Under the pieces are notes generated by a model. It made no database searches, was not told the origin of the DNA, and saw only the letters and a program-made list of their open reading frames with translations. The translations under genes were made by a program, and so were the position numbers. A stretch of 46,554 nucleotides of DNA from a virus (Duplodnaviria; Caudoviricetes): IMG/VR virus record IMGVR_UViG_3300020045_006090, positions 1 to 46,554 of that record, one strand, 5' to 3'. Below are positions 3,966 through 42,764 of this stretch, in pieces (the stretch's first letter is position 1; each line of letters starts with the position of its first letter).

Positions 3966-4227
3966 GGTTCAGTCCCGCGCTTGTTCAACGTGCATTTATC
4001 GCAAGGATTCGCCGCTTGATCTAAATAAGCTTGAGGCCGATATCGCCGATAAATACATGCCCGGATATTTCAAAGGCCATAGAATATGCCATCATTCAAA
4101 AGATGTTTGTTGTCGGGGATTTTGGAACCGCCATAAAGATAAATTTACGCTCGGGCAAATCGCGCAACGCCTGGGCTTTGTTCAATTCGTAAATATCGAT
4201 ATTTTAAAAAGGAAAAATAATGGCTGA
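3958..4227 (+). CDS. Cys/His-rich putative zinc-binding phage protein (DUF6283-like)
   Basis: CSTCIYR...ICHH...CCRGF motif; likely start MLKVQ at 3958. Confidence 0.55.
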   Translation: MLKVQSRACSTCIYRKDSPLDLNKLEADIADKYMPGYFKGHRICHHSKDVCCRGFWNRHKDKFTLGQIAQRLGFVQFVNIDILKRKNNG

Positions 4228-5023
4228 AAATTCAGGAATAGAATGGACCCACCACACTTTCAATCCGTGGATAGGATGCACAAAAATATCGGAGGCTTGC
4301 GATCATTGCTACGCCGCTGAATGGGACAAGCGATATGAAGGCGGAAAACATTGGGGGCCGACAGCACCGCGCCGACGCACAAGCGATTCTAATTGGCGGA
4401 CGCCTCTGAAATGGAACCGCATCGCCGGGGAAAAGGGCATCAGGCTACGTGTATTTTGCGCGTCGCTGGCTGATGTTTTTGACAATAAGGTTGACCCGTC
4501 ATGGCGCGTCGATCTTTTCCGCCTGATATCAGAAACGCCGCACCTTGATTGGCTTCTTTTGACGAAACGGCCACAAAATATTCACAAGATGTTGCCGCCT
4601 GATTGGGGCTACGGATATCCGAATGTATGGCTCGGCACGACCGTAGAGCATCAGAAAGCCGCCGACAAAAATATCTTGCCTCTTTTGAACGTACCAGCGC
4701 GAATTAGATTCCTATCATGCGAACCTTTGCTCGGCCCGATATCTCTTTCTCATATCCACGCAGATTTAAGGCATATCGGCGGCCCGGATTATTTCGATGC
4801 CCTTAGATGGTCAGGCTCAAAAATCGATTGGGTCATCACAGGCGGCGAAAGCGGGAGCCATTTCCGGCCCGCTGACGCTGATTGGTTCAGAGCCTTGCGC
4901 GATCAGTGTGCCGCCGCCGGAACAGCCTTCCTATTTAAGCAATGGGAGGGCGCGACGCAGCCGATCATCAAAGCCAAGGGCCGAGAATTGGACGGGGTGG
5001 TGCATGATGGCTACCCGGCTTAA
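4220..5023 (+). CDS. DUF5131 / phage Gp37-Gp68 family radical-SAM-like protein
   Basis: IEWTHHTFNPWIGCTKISEACDHCYA (Cx6Cx2C), LLLTKRPQ, RFLSCEPLLG, WVITGGESG, FLFKQW. Confidence 0.92.
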   Translation: MAENSGIEWTHHTFNPWIGCTKISEACDHCYAAEWDKRYEGGKHWGPTAPRRRTSDSNWRTPLKWNRIAGEKGIRLRVFCASLADVFDNKVDPSWRVDLFRLISETPHLDWLLLTKRPQNIHKMLPPDWGYGYPNVWLGTTVEHQKAADKNILPLLNVPARIRFLSCEPLLGPISLSHIHADLRHIGGPDYFDALRWSGSKIDWVITGGESGSHFRPADADWFRALRDQCAAAGTAFLFKQWEGATQPIIKAKGRELDGVVHDGYPA

Positions 5024-5330: not shown

Positions 5331-5534
5331 TCAAATCGCTTTTAGATTGACCGCTTCGACTTTTCCTTTTTTGGTTTCGAGTTCATAAGAAACGCGTTGA
5401 TTTTCATTCAGACCGCGCATGCCGGATCTTTCGACATTCGAAATATGGACAAAGACATCTTTTCCGCCATCATCAGGAACGATGAAGCCGAAACCTTTCT
5501 GTGAATTGAACCATTTAACAGTACCATTTAGCAT
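5331..5534 (-). CDS. cspA: Cold-shock protein (CSD), 67 aa
   Basis: MLNGTVKWFNSQKGFGFI...DVFVHIS (RNP1/RNP2); start at 5534. Confidence 0.95.
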   Translation of the reverse strand: MLNGTVKWFNSQKGFGFIVPDDGGKDVFVHISNVERSGMRGLNENQRVSYELETKKGKVEAVNLKAI

Positions 5535-5659
5535 AGATTTTATTCCTGATTTTAGAGGTTTGAACCGAGGCGGGATTGTCTCGATAGGAAACCGACGCTG
5601 CTTATAAAAAATCAATCCAATGTTGAAATTTAGTCGTCGGTTTCCATTCGAATCAACCG

Positions 5660-7282: not shown

Positions 7283-7816
7283 TCAGGGGAAATAAATCTG
7301 GCTAGGCAAATCAAGGCCGTGGCAGAACCATGCACAATAAAACCATGCCCCGCCCTCTTTTCCTGATGGCGTTACGAATTCGCATCTTTCAGGCAACATG
7401 ACTAGCTGAATTCCGTATTTTTTGAATAGCTTAAAGCGGCCTTGCTCTCCCATTTTGGTAATTGGCATCAGCAGCGCGAAAGGCTTTCCGAGGTCGTAGC
7501 ATCTTTGAAGCCATTCATCGGCAAGGGAAAAAGGTGGATTAGTGATTATCATGTCGAATTCAGGCACCGCCATAAGGGGCGACATAAAATCAAAGCCCGC
7601 CAGGATATCTGTGCCTTCAACTTCATATCCCAATTGCTCAAGGTAATTTACAAGCCTCCCTGACCCGGCAGCGCATTCCCAAATTTTCCATTCTTTCGGC
7701 ACCGATCGGCAAAGGATCTCGACCGGGGATAAGTCCCTTGTCTGGAAATGGTTAGAACTCCCGGTTTTTTTGGGGGGCATTTTTGATTTGATATTCGAAG
7801 GGAGCTGATGGGACAC
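7283..7816 (-). CDS. Small DNA N6-adenine methyltransferase
   Basis: Motif I IWECAAGSG; motif IV IITNPPF; no obvious target-recognition domain. Confidence 0.85.
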   Translation of the reverse strand: MSHQLPSNIKSKMPPKKTGSSNHFQTRDLSPVEILCRSVPKEWKIWECAAGSGRLVNYLEQLGYEVEGTDILAGFDFMSPLMAVPEFDMIITNPPFSLADEWLQRCYDLGKPFALLMPITKMGEQGRFKLFKKYGIQLVMLPERCEFVTPSGKEGGAWFYCAWFCHGLDLPSQIYFP

Positions 7817-37194: not shown

Positions 37195-38695
37195 TTAATT
37201 CTTCATCCTCTAGATTTTCATCAATCAAATCATCTTCGTCCATTTCGGGCAAATTTGCGTAGCCGCTTTCGGGATCACGGCGCAAGCGCTCCCGTTCTTC
37301 GTATGCGTTGATGGCACCTGAATTGATAAGCGTTTGTCCGGTCGTCGCGTTTGTAGAATTGATTGTCGCCCGTTCTTGAGCTGATGGTTTCTTAAGCGGG
37401 TTCCAAACAACTTCGGTTTCAAAAGGAGCTTTAGGCGATACCTCTGATCTGATCAGCATCATGTGATGTCGATTAAGCAAAGGCGTCATATCGTTAGCTT
37501 GAATTGTTTCCAGTTCCTGATTGTAGGAATCGATTTCAAATTCGCCCGATGCGTTGAAACCTTTAGGGCTTGTGCCTAATAATTTTGTAGCCGGTACGCC
37601 CGCGACGCCACAGACAATTTGATATTGCGTCATGATAACCGCATCAAGATCAGCAAGGCTTGTATCGAATTGCTGAATTGTTTCATCGCCGCCGACAATC
37701 TTGACGCCATAGTTATCGCGGAAATAAGCCCAATTCATAATTTTTTCTACAAAGCTTTTTCCTCTCAACATCGCTTTTTCGACATCAAGCGAAAGAACGG
37801 TCAAGCGTTTTGTCATGGCGAGCATTGGCGCTTCATTCGTTGTGCGCTCGGCACCATAGACGCGCTCGTAAATCTTTTGCGGAATCGAAAGACCGCCAAA
37901 ATTATATGATGGCTTAAGATTATCTGCGACCGGATCAGGGATAGAAATTATCAAGTGCGATTTGTGATATCTCTTTCCGCCGATGTTCCAATATGTCGGG
38001 ACATAAAAATCAATCGATGCCGGGTCGCTCGTAGATTCCGCCGTAAGCTCCGGTACGCACCACATCGGGTCTATCTGTGAAATGCCTTTATAAGATCCTG
38101 GCGTAATGCCATCGGGATTAAAAGGCTTCTCGTAATAAAGGGGATCTTTGCTTTCTACACGGAACAAGGTAACGCGCAATCCGAAAACTCGGCTCATGCG
38201 GACATATTCGACTAAGTTTTCACGGACCTTGAATTTCTTATCTAGCTTTTTTATTAGATCGAAAGTTTCTGCAGGGACATTTTTACCGTCGGTCACATTG
38301 ATTTCATATCCGACGCGAACAGCATCGCGGGCGGGCATCGTACAAGCTTTATTGACAAGCCAATGCTGCGCGATCATGGCGGATATTTGATAGCCGATGA
38401 AGCCTTGCCCCGCATACCATTCGATCTGAGCATCAGGCAAAGTATTTCTAAAATGATTTAAGGCTGATTTTGCGCTCCTTGATGGATCACCGTTAGCGGC
38501 ATCAAATACAATCGCGCTGTCCATCGTATGACCTTTTGCGGTCGGCATTGGGACTTGAAAGCTTCTTTTCATCGAGGCGTGAAGCTGATCAATGCGCTCC
38601 GGGCCTGATCGATTATAAACATCGGTCGTAAAAAAGCCGCCGGGCTTGCGGGCGGGCTTTGGAGTTGCAGGCTTTTTGCCGAATATATTAATCAT
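37154..38695 (-). CDS. Portal protein (DUF1073)
   Basis: QHWLVNKACTMPARDA, GVPATKLLGTSPKGFNASGE; follows TerL. Confidence 0.92.
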   Translation of the reverse strand: MINIFGKKPATPKPARKPGGFFTTDVYNRSGPERIDQLHASMKRSFQVPMPTAKGHTMDSAIVFDAANGDPSRSAKSALNHFRNTLPDAQIEWYAGQGFIGYQISAMIAQHWLVNKACTMPARDAVRVGYEINVTDGKNVPAETFDLIKKLDKKFKVRENLVEYVRMSRVFGLRVTLFRVESKDPLYYEKPFNPDGITPGSYKGISQIDPMWCVPELTAESTSDPASIDFYVPTYWNIGGKRYHKSHLIISIPDPVADNLKPSYNFGGLSIPQKIYERVYGAERTTNEAPMLAMTKRLTVLSLDVEKAMLRGKSFVEKIMNWAYFRDNYGVKIVGGDETIQQFDTSLADLDAVIMTQYQIVCGVAGVPATKLLGTSPKGFNASGEFEIDSYNQELETIQANDMTPLLNRHHMMLIRSEVSPKAPFETEVVWNPLKKPSAQERATINSTNATTGQTLINSGAINAYEERERLRRDPESGYANLPEMDEDDLIDENLEDEELNGDEPKDDEEAAA

Positions 38696-40013
38696 CGAAA
38701 AATCCCTTTTTCTTGCGTTTGATGAAACTTGCAAGCGCGTAACGGATAGCGTCCCACCCGTGGTTGAATTTATCTACGATATCAGGCGTCACCTTTTTTG
38801 TCACTCTATCGATTTTGTAGGAATAGAGGCGGGCCTCGGCTTGCATTTCCGAACAACGGGTATGGATATAGATTTTGACAAAGGATTTAAGAACGGTAAT
38901 TCCATCCTCGACAGATCCCGGCCATTTTTCAGCCGCATCAATATCGAAGCCTTGCTTGCTTACATGGCTGATTGTTTCCGGGCGCGAACTGTCGGCCTGA
39001 ATGTTATATTTATCGGCATCGGGAACACCGTCCCATGTTCGGCCCTCGCCATCTTTCCCGCCTGAATAAAAGAATTTATAATCATCAAGTTCGACCTTTT
39101 GACCGAATTCAGCATATTCGACATAAAGGTTTTTCTTTGCGACCGTTATATCTCGATCAGGCTCAAGCACCTCAATCCATAATTTAACAAGGGTCGACGG
39201 ATCGAGGGAAAAGCCCCAATCGGCTCCAAAGTATGGACCCTCCCAATGCGGCTGCGGGTCGAATGTTTTGATTTCGTATTTCCCAGCGAATATGATGGCG
39301 TCTGCAATTCCGGTCGCGTGACCCATGTATTCATGATCGTAAGCAAGCGGGTTATTTTCTTTAAGCCATTGCGCTTCGTTGATAAATTCTTCGCCTAACC
39401 AATCGGGCGGAACATCGAGATATGTAGATTCATGCAAATATTTACCGGGCTTTATAATTTCAGCTTCGGCATTGACCCATGCTTGCGGATCTATAGGCGG
39501 GTTGTAGCTGAAGAATTCGACAAAGCTTTCACCGCCGCGCTTTACGGATTGGCCTACCGAGCGCAATTCCTCCGGGCCACCGAATTCCGCCGTTTCTTCA
39601 TACCATGAATATTTGAAATATCCGCGCTTAAGCCTGATGGATTTTAATTTTAGCGGGCTGTCTAAACCTTTGAATACGATTTTCTGCCCGGTCGGTTTAT
39701 AGACAATCGATGCGGGGCTTACGGTCGACCTGAATAAATGCCCGACCTCTAATTTTTCAATCGCCCACTCAAGCGTTGTCAAAACAGAATCGCGGATCGT
39801 ATCGCCGACCTTTCTGAATACGATGGCGTTGGCGTTTGGATCCTTCATCATGCCGAGAATAATCTCGATGGCTACGAATGATGATTTCGTAGATCCCCGA
39901 CCGCCCTTTAGCCAAAAGGACGAATGCGTTTGGTTCTTGATGGCATTGTGAACTTTATGAAAGGCCGGGGCGATATTGTCGGTAAGCCGGACCCTTACAG
40001 GCGCTTCGATCAT
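38688..40013 (-). CDS. terL: Terminase large subunit (PBSX family)
   Basis: LKGGRGSTKS Walker A, WYEE Walker B, SYNPP, GADWGFSLDP, NHGWDAIRY. Confidence 0.96.
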   Translation of the reverse strand: MIEAPVRVRLTDNIAPAFHKVHNAIKNQTHSSFWLKGGRGSTKSSFVAIEIILGMMKDPNANAIVFRKVGDTIRDSVLTTLEWAIEKLEVGHLFRSTVSPASIVYKPTGQKIVFKGLDSPLKLKSIRLKRGYFKYSWYEETAEFGGPEELRSVGQSVKRGGESFVEFFSYNPPIDPQAWVNAEAEIIKPGKYLHESTYLDVPPDWLGEEFINEAQWLKENNPLAYDHEYMGHATGIADAIIFAGKYEIKTFDPQPHWEGPYFGADWGFSLDPSTLVKLWIEVLEPDRDITVAKKNLYVEYAEFGQKVELDDYKFFYSGGKDGEGRTWDGVPDADKYNIQADSSRPETISHVSKQGFDIDAAEKWPGSVEDGITVLKSFVKIYIHTRCSEMQAEARLYSYKIDRVTKKVTPDIVDKFNHGWDAIRYALASFIKRKKKGFFDD

Positions 40014-40465
40014 TCATCAATCGTTTCTTCGTCGTCGCCTTCATCGCCATTCGGATCGTCGTCCGGGATATCATCATCAGGAATGTCGTCAAATATCTGA
40101 ACAGGGACAGCCGGGAAGCCGCCAGGAAATTCGTGCTTTTCCGCATTCTTGCCGAAATATCCATCAGCGATGAATTGTGCCGCCGCCGTATTACCTTGAG
40201 CAGCTTTGACCGCTTGGCCTAAAATTACTTTATCGATCACGCGCTGTTTACCACCGATGTTGAACGGCATATCCTCGGTAATGATCGCACCGCCATCAGG
40301 ATTGACCTTTGAATAAATTGCTTCGACGATGCGGGCAAATTCATTTTGACGATTTGGCCCTGTGCGGCCTTGCGGATTTCCTGATTGACCGGGTTGCCAC
40401 ATCTTGCGGTGTTTATCCAATGCGGCGCGTTGAGCTTCGTTAGGTGGTTCGCCTTTTTTCGGCAT
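40010..40465 (-). CDS. terS: Terminase small subunit (DUF5681-like)
   Basis: WQPGQSGNPQGR; KAAQGNTAAA; directly upstream of TerL. Confidence 0.78.
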   Translation of the reverse strand: MPKKGEPPNEAQRAALDKHRKMWQPGQSGNPQGRTGPNRQNEFARIVEAIYSKVNPDGGAIITEDMPFNIGGKQRVIDKVILGQAVKAAQGNTAAAQFIADGYFGKNAEKHEFPGGFPAVPVQIFDDIPDDDIPDDDPNGDEGDDEETIDE

Positions 40466-40477
40466 AGCAATTCTCCA

Positions 40478-41191
40478 TCAGTTTAAGGCCGGGCCTGTTA
40501 CGTTCCAGAATAACACATTGCCACCACCTTTGTGCAAGCGGCAAATATCCCAAGCTTTAGCGTCGTAATGAGGATCTGATGGAAATGGTTGTGAATGTTC
40601 GGCGCGATAAAGTGGCTGGCTAAATTTTAAAGGGCTGATATGAATTTCCGCGCCATCTACATCAGCCTTGGAAAGAGTTCGCCCGATTTGCACAGCGTGG
40701 CGTTTCGCATGTGGAAAAGCTTTACCGAGCGCGCGGATTAAAACGCCTGAACCGGCTGCACACCAAATTTCATCGGGTTCGACATCGATCTGTCTTGCTG
40801 CATTGGCGATGATATCCAAAGCCTCGGGGACGTCCATGCCGAAAGGGGCAAGCTTCGCGCCTGTATCATCGCAATATTTCTTTGCCCGCGCCTGGCATAC
40901 GGTCATGTAGCCGGGCGATACCTGATAGATTTTCGCGCCAAGGCTTCGGGCCATAATTGCGCGGTCGTGGGGCTTGGCACGTTTGGCGATGAATATGGTC
41001 GCTTTCTTGCCCGCTTGTTGAGCGCAATGTGCAAGGGCTGTCTGTGCGCCACCTTCGGGCGGGGATGCGTAGACAATTTCATCGTGATTTTCGAAAAGGA
41101 TATTCAGGAAGCGGGCTTTGGTACCGCCGGGGAAAAGATCGTCGCGGACGACATGGACGCCTTTATGGATTTCGACGATAGGCTTAATCAT
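40478..41191 (-). CDS. Fold-type II PLP-dependent enzyme (ACC deaminase / D-cysteine desulfhydrase-like)
   Basis: VVRDDL...GGTKAR Schiff-base lysine; IWCAAGSG phosphate loop; DPHYDAKAW; VLFWNV. Confidence 0.85.
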   Translation of the reverse strand: MIKPIVEIHKGVHVVRDDLFPGGTKARFLNILFENHDEIVYASPPEGGAQTALAHCAQQAGKKATIFIAKRAKPHDRAIMARSLGAKIYQVSPGYMTVCQARAKKYCDDTGAKLAPFGMDVPEALDIIANAARQIDVEPDEIWCAAGSGVLIRALGKAFPHAKRHAVQIGRTLSKADVDGAEIHISPLKFSQPLYRAEHSQPFPSDPHYDAKAWDICRLHKGGGNVLFWNVTGPALN

Positions 41192-41282
41192 AAATTATCA
41201 AACCGAAAAAAGCGACAACGTTGCCTACGCGCTCATAAATCCTTTTATTAAAAAATCTAAGGCTTTCAACCTGATCAACTCG

Positions 41283-41310
41283 ATTATAAGTTAAGCCGCA
41301 AAATTGCCAG
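41283..41310 (-). promoter_or_regulatory. Possible promoter for the PLP-enzyme/terminase late operon
   Basis: CTGGCA-N16-TATAAT in the 148-bp intergenic gap. Confidence 0.4.
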
Positions 41311-41339
41311 CTTTTATAAATAATCATTTCCAACCTCCA

Positions 41340-42764
41340 TTAGGCCATTTCCTCCCCGTATTCGCTTGCGGGCTTTTCGGCATCATCAGCGATATATATT
41401 TCAACATCGCCGCATGCTTCCGCCGCTTTCTTTCCATCGCCTTTGACGAAGATCAAAACATTCTGGTGAGTTTTTCCAAGCTTTCTAGACGATGAAAATT
41501 GTTTTCCGGCGCGGATAGGTAGCGACCCGGCTGATGTGATAAGGATGGCCTCATTGTAGAATTCGAGCCCGGCATCGCGGAAAGCTTGGACCGTATCGCC
41601 GACGAAATCATAATAGTTGCCTTGCTTATCACGAACCTCGCCGACAACAAAAGCAGCAAAGCGATTATCGCGCAACAGGCTGCAAGATTTTTTGATAATT
41701 TCGAAATAAGCGTTTTTGAACTCGGGATATGAAAGCGTGGAAAGGTCTTGTGGATCATCGGAATAAACTTCTAAATCAGCATAGGGTGGACAGGAAAATA
41801 CAAAATCGAATTCGCGGGATTGGACGTGATCGATAATATCTCGGGAATCCCCGACAATCCATTCAGGTGCAATTTCAAAATTGATTTCTTTAGCCTGGGA
41901 GGAATTTGCTTCGACCTGTTCGGCGCGTAAATCGACGCCTGTATATTTGCGACCAAGGAAAGCCGCTACCATGCCGCGCACAGATCCGCCCGCAAAGGGG
42001 TCGAGTATTGAACCGCCCGGCGGACAAAACCAGCTGTAATTTAATTCGCAAAGAACCGGGTCAAATATCGATGTGCCTGTTCCGGTAGGACCGTCGCCCG
42101 CTAATCCGGTGAGCCCTTTGGATTTTACCCAATCAGTTGTATTCGTTGCCTTGGCAAGATTTTTCTTTTTGTAGCCTTTATTCGCCTGTTCGGAAAACTT
42201 GAGCAAATTTTCGCCCCGGCCTAATTCGGATTGAATGCCTTTCGATATCCAAGCGCGTTTGCGAGATTGCCACCAGCCATCGCGGGCATTCAGGACGGAA
42301 AACGGCGCGACAAGGAATTTTTCGACAAGCGATCCCGCCTTGCCTGTAACCTGCATTTTTTCCTCAGGCTTTAAAAAGCTGTCGATATCAGCTGCCGCAA
42401 ATCCTGTCAGATCCATATCGAAATTCATATCGCTCAAGCCTTGAAGCTCGATCTTAAGCATATCCATGTCCCAACCGGACTTCAGGGCGATTTGGTTATC
42501 AGCAAGCATGTAGGCCCGCTTTTCTTCCGGCGTCAGGTGGTCGGCTAATATCGCCGGGACCATTTCCATTTCTAATTGCCTTGCAGCCTCAATCCGACCA
42601 TGCCCGGCAATCAGGACGCCATCGGCATCGATTATGACCGGATTTAGAAAACCAAATTTCTTGATCGATTTGACAATCAGGGCGATTTGGTCGGCTGGAT
42701 GCGTCCTAGCATTTTTCGGGTTGGCTGTAATTTCGTTGATAGATTTTAGCAAAAACTTGTCCAC
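41340..42764 (-). CDS. ParB/Srx N-terminal domain fused to DNA methyltransferase-like SAM-dependent transferase
   Basis: NPKNARTH...SIKKFGFLNPV...IAGHGR (ParB); SIFDPVLCE; ILDPFAGGSVRG (motif I); FSCPPY (motif IV). Confidence 0.88.
   Translation of the reverse strand: MDKFLLKSINEITANPKNARTHPADQIALIVKSIKKFGFLNPVIIDADGVLIAGHGRIEAARQLEMEMVPAILADHLTPEEKRAYMLADNQIALKSGWDMDMLKIELQGLSDMNFDMDLTGFAAADIDSFLKPEEKMQVTGKAGSLVEKFLVAPFSVLNARDGWWQSRKRAWISKGIQSELGRGENLLKFSEQANKGYKKKNLAKATNTTDWVKSKGLTGLAGDGPTGTGTSIFDPVLCELNYSWFCPPGGSILDPFAGGSVRGMVAAFLGRKYTGVDLRAEQVEANSSQAKEINFEIAPEWIVGDSRDIIDHVQSREFDFVFSCPPYADLEVYSDDPQDLSTLSYPEFKNAYFEIIKKSCSLLRDNRFAAFVVGEVRDKQGNYYDFVGDTVQAFRDAGLEFYNEAILITSAGSLPIRAGKQFSSSRKLGKTHQNVLIFVKGDGKKAAEACGDVEIYIADDAEKPASEYGEEMA

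Follow-up and report, generated by a model that had tools for sequence, protein, structure and literature searches.

The window analysed here, a whole stretch of 46,554 nucleotides (IMGVR_UViG_3300020045_006090), is a complete circular phage genome (121-nt terminal repeat; completeness 100) with contractile-tail genes among its ORFs. On its minus strand the gene for a ParB-fused Rossmann enzyme with the motif CPPY is followed by a 47-codon ORF, the gene for a fold-II PLP enzyme, terS and terL:

41340..42764, minus strand: ParB-fused amino-methyltransferase-fold enzyme, 474 aa (phrog_498, E 1e-133; Pfam ParB_N and N6_N4_Mtase)
42540..42743, minus strand: its ParB/Srx N-terminal domain, aa 8-75, with a GHGR motif (PF02195, E 6e-6)
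42045..42071, minus strand: its motif-X-like SIFDPVLCE, aa 232-240 (aligns to PAPFPAILAE of the N4C methyltransferase 8s9n)
41973..42002, minus strand: its motif I DPFAGGSVRG, aa 255-264, with G260 and R263 (by motif position and column counts)
41781..41798, minus strand: its motif IV FSCPPY, aa 323-328 (aligns to VTSPPY of 2zie and 8s9n)
41184..41327, minus strand: 47-codon ORF (GGAGG ribosome site; its stop overlaps the PLP start)
40478..41191, minus strand: fold-type II PLP enzyme, 237 aa, lysine K25 (PALP above cut-off; phrog_7093, E 9e-55)
40010..40465, minus strand: terminase small subunit, terS (by position; DUF5681 below cut-off)
38688..40013, minus strand: terminase large subunit, terL (Terminase_3, E 1e-34; PHROGs)

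Both enzyme ORFs and all the motifs quoted in the original prediction are present in the window. The PLP gene lies, as predicted, on the same strand as the gene of the CPPY enzyme, but not directly behind it: the 47-codon ORF in between had been missed. This ORF, which has no homologue in the fetched loci, is possibly a translational coupler; the gene of the CPPY enzyme has its own ribosome site (AAAGGA), and the PLP gene has no clear one. Terminase genes predominate among the neighbour clusters, and with its ParB domain and its adjacency to terS and terL the locus is of the ParB-Tls kind. Iyer et al. 2013 is said to be the source on ParB-terminase loci and may already mention PLP or SAM decarboxylase (SAMDC) partners.

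The genes for 5hmU synthesis, a kinase and aGPT had been predicted to be missing from the complete genome, and this proved right. A tblastn search with six M6 proteins revealed no relative of the M6 aGPT, kinase, rSAM or thymidylate synthase in the window, the sole match at E < 0.2 being to the PLP enzyme gp52, and among the 63 + 9 ORFs scanned there was no 5hmU-synthesis, 5-HMUDK or aGPT family. A SAMDC was not found in the window genome, and no match to an integrase or a DNA polymerase was found among the ORFs scanned.

Elsewhere the window encodes a second, small NPPF-type DNA methyltransferase (7283-7816, minus strand; phrog_799), which may be an ordinary methylase of the phage, a DUF5131 (phage Gp37/Gp68) protein with a cysteine cluster (4220-5023, plus strand; E 2e-82), which could bear on DNA chemistry, and a cold-shock protein (5331-5615, minus strand; phrog_729). 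GGCC, CTGC/GCAG, CCAG/CTGG and 6-mer palindromes are strongly depleted throughout the window; since the hypermodified phage M6 likewise avoids palindromes, this depletion says nothing on an anti-restriction role.

That the 237-aa protein is a fold-II PLP enzyme was borne out by its PALP score (PF00291; 43.7 bits vs. a cut-off of 35) and by its model (pLDDT 90.6), which has the tryptophan-synthase-beta fold and a TM of 0.83 to 1j0a, an ACC deaminase homologue; D-cysteine desulfhydrase and ACC deaminase are the nearest solved folds. It contains the motifs GGTKAR, CAAGSG and DPHYDAKAW, and by motif position the Schiff-base lysine is K25 rather than K24 as first given. Among 158 PLP relatives G(G/T/S)xKxR is present in 155 and GSG in 150. 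The best PHROG of the enzyme, phrog_7093, is the family of M6 gp52, with which it shares 24% identity over 215 aa (E 2e-9), whereas it matches ViI gp226 weakly; the profile E values of 1e-13 to gp52 and 1e-5 to gp226 are single-target values, and the kinship is distant. According to Lee et al. (PMC8989533), who threaded gp226 on the template 1j0a, gp52 and gp226 decarboxylate amino acids that are attached to DNA. A fold-II enzyme can thus be a DNA decarboxylase, but an identity of 24% alone is insufficient to carry this function over to the PLP enzyme of the window.

In the 474-aa enzyme the predicted fusion of a ParB/Srx domain with a methyltransferase domain whose catalytic motif IV reads CPPY was confirmed by the Pfam domains (ParB_N with 26.6 bits vs. 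a cut-off of 26.3) and by the motif positions. The enzyme has the motif I DPFxG of class I Rossmann folds (DPFAG, 255-259), followed by GGSVR in place of the GSGT of amino-methyltransferases, a departure found family-wide. In motif IV it has CPPY instead of the (D/N/S)PP(Y/F/W) of DNA amino-methyltransferases. CPPY was found in all 139 called motifs of loci that had been selected, independently of this motif, for their PLP gene, and SPPY in 17 of 454 loci overall. In a profile of 145 aligned sequences, in which PPY is unvarying, both halves of the enzyme match solved DNA amino-methyltransferases best, with the halves permuted (2zie, E 6e-14; 8s9n, CcrM, MboIIA and PvuII). PPY is described as the base-amine motif of amino-methyltransferases, and Ser at the position of the Cys in CPPY as the mark of N4-cytosine enzymes (PMC4738411); the alignment of CPPY to SPPY therefore tips the putative target slightly towards cytosine N4 rather than adenine N6.

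The AF2 model of aa 140-474 (pLDDT 82.9) is a class I Rossmann fold, but because its fold matches are generic (TM about 0.4), the fold leaves the acceptor undecided. RNA methyltransferases lead these matches, among them the tRNA enzymes Trm11 and Trm14, and neither an acp (3-amino-3-carboxypropyl) transferase nor a spermidine synthase is among the 35 fold matches listed. The patterns of the enzyme occur in an estimated 3,000 or so viral stretches of IMG/VR, the hosts including haloarchaea and bacteria of different phyla.

How tightly the two genes belong together was seen in two sets of loci, one selected by the PLP enzyme (6 loci plus the best 80 of 213 and the best 80 of 377 confirmed) and one by the CPPY enzyme (160 loci, being the best 80 of 563 and the best 80 of 395 confirmed, of which 9 with short flanks were dropped); some contigs are present in both collections. 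A CPPY enzyme is encoded in 153 of the 163 PLP-selected loci, the other 10 having less than 600 nt upstream, so that no locus with full flank is without it; after removal of identical PLP sequences there remained 112 loci with the enzyme and 10 with short upstream sequence. The two genes are not more than 500 nt apart in 136 of 139 scored pairs. Starting from the CPPY enzyme, only 39 of 151 loci have a PLP gene and 112 have neither a PLP nor a SAMDC partner; a SAMDC gene is absent from all 151 loci and likewise from all 163 PLP-selected ones.

The pairing of PLP with the CPPY enzyme is therefore far beyond chance, but it is one-way: the PLP gene comes with the CPPY enzyme, which mostly does without PLP. 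Of the original prediction the co-occurrence thus holds in the first direction and fails in the second, and the two genes do not form an obligate system. Nor can CPPY be taken as a hint at new chemistry, since it runs through the family and a PLP partner is missing from about three quarters of the nearest relatives (the same 112 of 151).

In the phages Mae-JY30 and Vincenzo the PLP and CPPY genes are adjacent. In Pam4 gp70 and ZS04_7 a PLP domain is inserted into the CPPY enzyme between motifs I-III and motif IV, and in P0199 it is fused to the C-terminus; among the fetched loci only the two insertion proteins are fused. The insertions of Pam4 and ZS04_7 stem from different PLP subfamilies, phrog_3650 and phrog_7093, which are those of ViI gp226 (to whose PHROG Vincenzo gp2 also belongs) and of M6 gp52, respectively.

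In P2559S, ZRG1 and many contigs the slot of the PLP gene is occupied by a SAMDC gene, the ES(H/S) motif being kept in 59 of 61 SAMDC matches, and in these relatives G-x-x-R in motif I of the Rossmann enzyme is changed to D-x-x-F. From 445 enzyme cores 248 clusters were formed at 90%, of which 8 incomplete ones were dropped; the sampling had been steered towards relatives of the SAMDC type (P2559S, ZRG1). Where residue 263 is not basic, SAMDC is present in 45 of 46 clusters; where it is basic, in none of 194. By the residues at 260 and 263, there were 44 D-F clusters and 1 D-M cluster with SAMDC, 1 D-T and 5 D-K clusters without partner, 8 E-K clusters with another conserved partner gene, 73 G-R clusters with PLP (a number inflated by the PLP-directed sampling) and 108 G-R clusters alone. 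F234L (Leu in 26 of the 26 aligned), R263F, G260D, W302Y and Y274F, with scores of 1.8-2.0, set 26 SAMDC-linked enzymes apart from 99 others most clearly, whereas 18 PLP-linked enzymes could not be told from 81 stand-alone ones by any column (best score 0.44).

The SAMDC link is confined to one clade of single origin (34 rows, support 99, in a quick tree), which is why Fisher p-values for its association with motif I are overstated. A DTQK group, with Lys and without SAMDC and so apparently a reversal, is nested in the D clade at 97/90 in an alignment that included the motif columns, but monophyly of the SAMDC-linked enzymes was not rejected in the AU test (p 0.08); one locus (L224) has neither SAMDC nor the basic residue. 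If F257 is put on the first glycine of the loop, as we assume by motif convention and not by structural alignment, residue 260 falls on Asp131 of the spermidine synthase AtSPDS. This aspartate, in the loop Gly128-Gly133, is reported to bind the amine of decarboxylated SAM (dcSAM) (PMC6514230). The spermidine-synthase combination of a loop Asp with SAMDC is thus found, by position, in 45 clusters of the sister clade, but not in the window, where residue 260 is Gly and SAMDC is absent. R263 would bind the carboxylate of SAM, and a changed SAM pocket is confined to enzymes whose cofactor would be a different one.

A methyl group offers a PLP or SAMDC partner nothing to act on. We proposed that the CPPY enzyme (41340-42764) is an acp transferase which transfers the amino-acid arm of SAM to the amine of a DNA base and that the PLP enzyme (40478-41191) decarboxylates the acp-base to an aminopropyl base; we give this reaction an even chance. 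The arm would lose its carboxyl either before the transfer, by SAMDC, or after it, by PLP. Stand-alone enzymes with the G-x-x-R pocket would leave acp-DNA, PLP-linked enzymes with the same pocket would yield aminopropyl-DNA in two steps on DNA, and SAMDC-linked enzymes with the D-x-x-F pocket would form the aminopropyl base in one step from dcSAM. That no column parts PLP-linked from stand-alone enzymes suggests that PLP likely acts after the transfer. The ParB domain would couple the modification to packaging, and the modification might serve to protect the DNA from nucleases or to neutralise charge inside the capsid.

The idea of acp transfer followed by PLP processing, already part of the original prediction, has gained from the linkage of PLP to the enzyme, the fusions, the kinship to gp52 and gp226 and the swap for SAMDC with a changed pocket, and has lost by the stand-alone majority. 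Where that prediction had left decarboxylation or deamination as equals, the replacement by SAMDC points to CO2 loss as the shared step and favours the former.

The strongest counterpoint is the stand-alone majority of the family, for which plain methylation accounts just as well. If the CPPY enzyme were an ordinary m4C or m6A DNA methyltransferase and the PLP and SAMDC enzymes had a separate job, e.g., adjusting the pools of SAM or polyamines while DNA is packaged, one would also understand the sequence matches to N4C/N6A methyltransferases, the name DNA methylase carried by the Atlas clusters of the family and the naming of R6L ORF1 as a CcrM-like methylase, the latter by prediction only (PMC5463345). 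We nevertheless consider this unlikely, as it leaves unexplained both the insertion of PLP domains from two subfamilies within the catalytic domain and the variation of the SAM pocket with the presence of SAMDC; moreover, destruction of SAM beside a methylase would be counterproductive, and motif I departs from GSGT in the whole family.

Mutual exclusion of the PLP and SAMDC genes in a common slot would also be expected if the PLP enzyme itself were a SAM decarboxylase, with dcSAM formed first and the aminopropyl group then transferred directly, which would reverse the order and leave the end product unchanged; for MccD/MccE such a sequence is, according to a review (PMC10491745), not fully excluded. 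The PLP-linked enzymes, however, share G260 and R263 with the stand-alone ones and are without the D/F pocket of the SAMDC-linked ones, and the characterised relatives of the PLP enzyme work on DNA-bound amino acids (PMC8989533), which makes this order rather improbable.

A group transferred to something other than DNA appears more doubtful still, whether the acceptor were a tRNA, a protein of the virion or a polyamine, the last giving packaging a compact route of the spermidine type. SAMDC together with an Asp-bearing Rossmann fold is indeed the arrangement of spermidine synthase (PMC6514230), and Trm11 and Trm14 are among the top fold matches; against this stand the invariance of PPY, a base-amine motif (PMC4738411), the DNA enzymes as best sequence matches, the ParB fusion, the terminase position and the absence of spermidine synthases among the matches listed for the sequence profile and the fold. 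Equally hard to credit is that acp reaches DNA but that PLP catalyzes an elimination or a deamination to the oxo-acid or is itself an acp transferase of the Mur24 type, since, although eliminases are the nearest solved folds and PLP-dependent enzymes that transfer acp from SAM are known (PMC10491745), SAMDC replacement points to CO2 loss, the Mur24 type looks like ACC synthases and is found with no methyltransferase homologue (PMC10491745) and gp52 and gp226 are fold-II decarboxylases (PMC8989533).

The module is real and conserved and lies outside the 5hmU pathways; most likely it works like MccD/MccE but on DNA, and it would represent a variant of phage DNA hypermodification. The wider reading, that the whole "DNA methylase" family never methylates and generates acp-DNA alone or aminopropyl-DNA by two convergent routes (PLP, dcSAM), with the state readable from two motif I residues, is, taken as a whole, a tentative one for which the chances are slightly below even.

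Several variants were observed among the relatives. An SPPY subclade with the residues E-Q-T-K has a conserved partner of about 170 aa with a VPTGSGET motif, which follows the enzyme in 8 of 8 clusters (e.g., L016:4851-5366, phiCTP1 gp52; also L258-L272) and whose identity as a PLP enzyme is unconfirmed. Some CPPY enzymes end in a cysteine-rich domain (L080, L110, L197) or have one encoded beside them (L016:3358-3969; L316); no Pfam family reached its cut-off there. SAM synthetase and a PP-loop-like gene with an SGGKD motif are found beside some members (L206, L214, L219, also L191, L199, L200, L035 and L259); of the DTQK loci two have the SAM synthetase and two the PP-loop-like gene, the latter recognised by eye and without Pfam match. 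These neighbours hint at a high SAM demand and at further tailoring of a retained carboxylate. In the halovirus HCTV-2 the slot after the CPPY enzyme contains a second, permuted methyltransferase-like gene (gp12, L013:5063-5704) with TSLP replacing PPY, and in L175 the CPPY enzyme is apparently fused to a terS-like C-terminus (659-aa frame).

If the proposal is true, acp- and aminopropyl-bases join the DNA alphabet via one or two small genes and without a special nucleotide pool, a large family of phage "methylases" has to be re-assigned, some phage SAMDC genes now read as polyamine metabolism are explained, and there is an enzyme by which DNA can be given a primary amine handle from plain SAM. 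Cultured phages are available for the PLP state (Mae-JY30, ZS04/R6L, Pam4, Vincenzo) and for the SAMDC state (ZRG1, P2559S).

A full-text literature search of mostly open papers (among them PMC12783734, PMC13458397, PMC8256090, PMC5463345, PMC11780129 and PMC12704722), yielded no description of the module or of aminopropyl- or acp-bases in phage DNA. Closest in its setting are the methyltransferases of ParB-Tls loci, which share with the window enzyme the ParB fusion, the unpermuted amino-methyltransferase domain and the position before terS/terL (PMC4738411; PMC12704722); CPPY, GGSVRG and the PLP or SAMDC partners set the window enzyme and its relatives apart, such partners having no mention in the main texts of the two papers on these ParB fusions.

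CmoX from phage S-B43, which forms carboxymethylcytosine, is also a methyltransferase fold by which DNA receives a non-methyl group from a SAM derivative, and ParB genes are often close by, but it has SPPC, uses carboxy-SAM and works by C5-cytosine chemistry (PMC12783734). Its main text mentions neither PLP nor aminopropyl nor decarboxylation.

The RNA acp transferases Tyw2, Tsr3 and TapT transfer acp from SAM to a nucleobase, Tyw2 with a Rossmann fold, but act on RNA and have no decarboxylase partner (PMC10491745); they are absent among the matches listed for the window enzyme. Spermidine synthase with SAMDC (PMC6514230) resembles the sister clade in its SAMDC and in the Asp of the glycine loop, and differs from the window enzyme, which has Gly there, a PPY motif, no SAMDC and, presumably, a DNA base as acceptor.

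M6 gp52 and ViI gp226, from thymidine hypermodification (PMC8989533), have the fold-II PLP enzyme in common with the window, whose protein belongs to the gp52 PHROG. Their phages, however, possess 5hmU, kinase and aGPT genes, of which the window has none, and use free Gly or Ser as the source of the amino acid, where here SAM would serve via the Rossmann enzyme.

The two-step logic proposed for the window pair is that of MccD and MccE, although MccD is not among the sequence or fold matches listed for the window enzyme. On microcin C a methyltransferase fold transfers acp and a PLP enzyme then decarboxylates it to aminopropyl, as reviewed in PMC10491745; there the acceptor is a peptide-nucleotide phosphate, whereas the window enzyme has the PPY motif, the ParB fusion and the terminase context.
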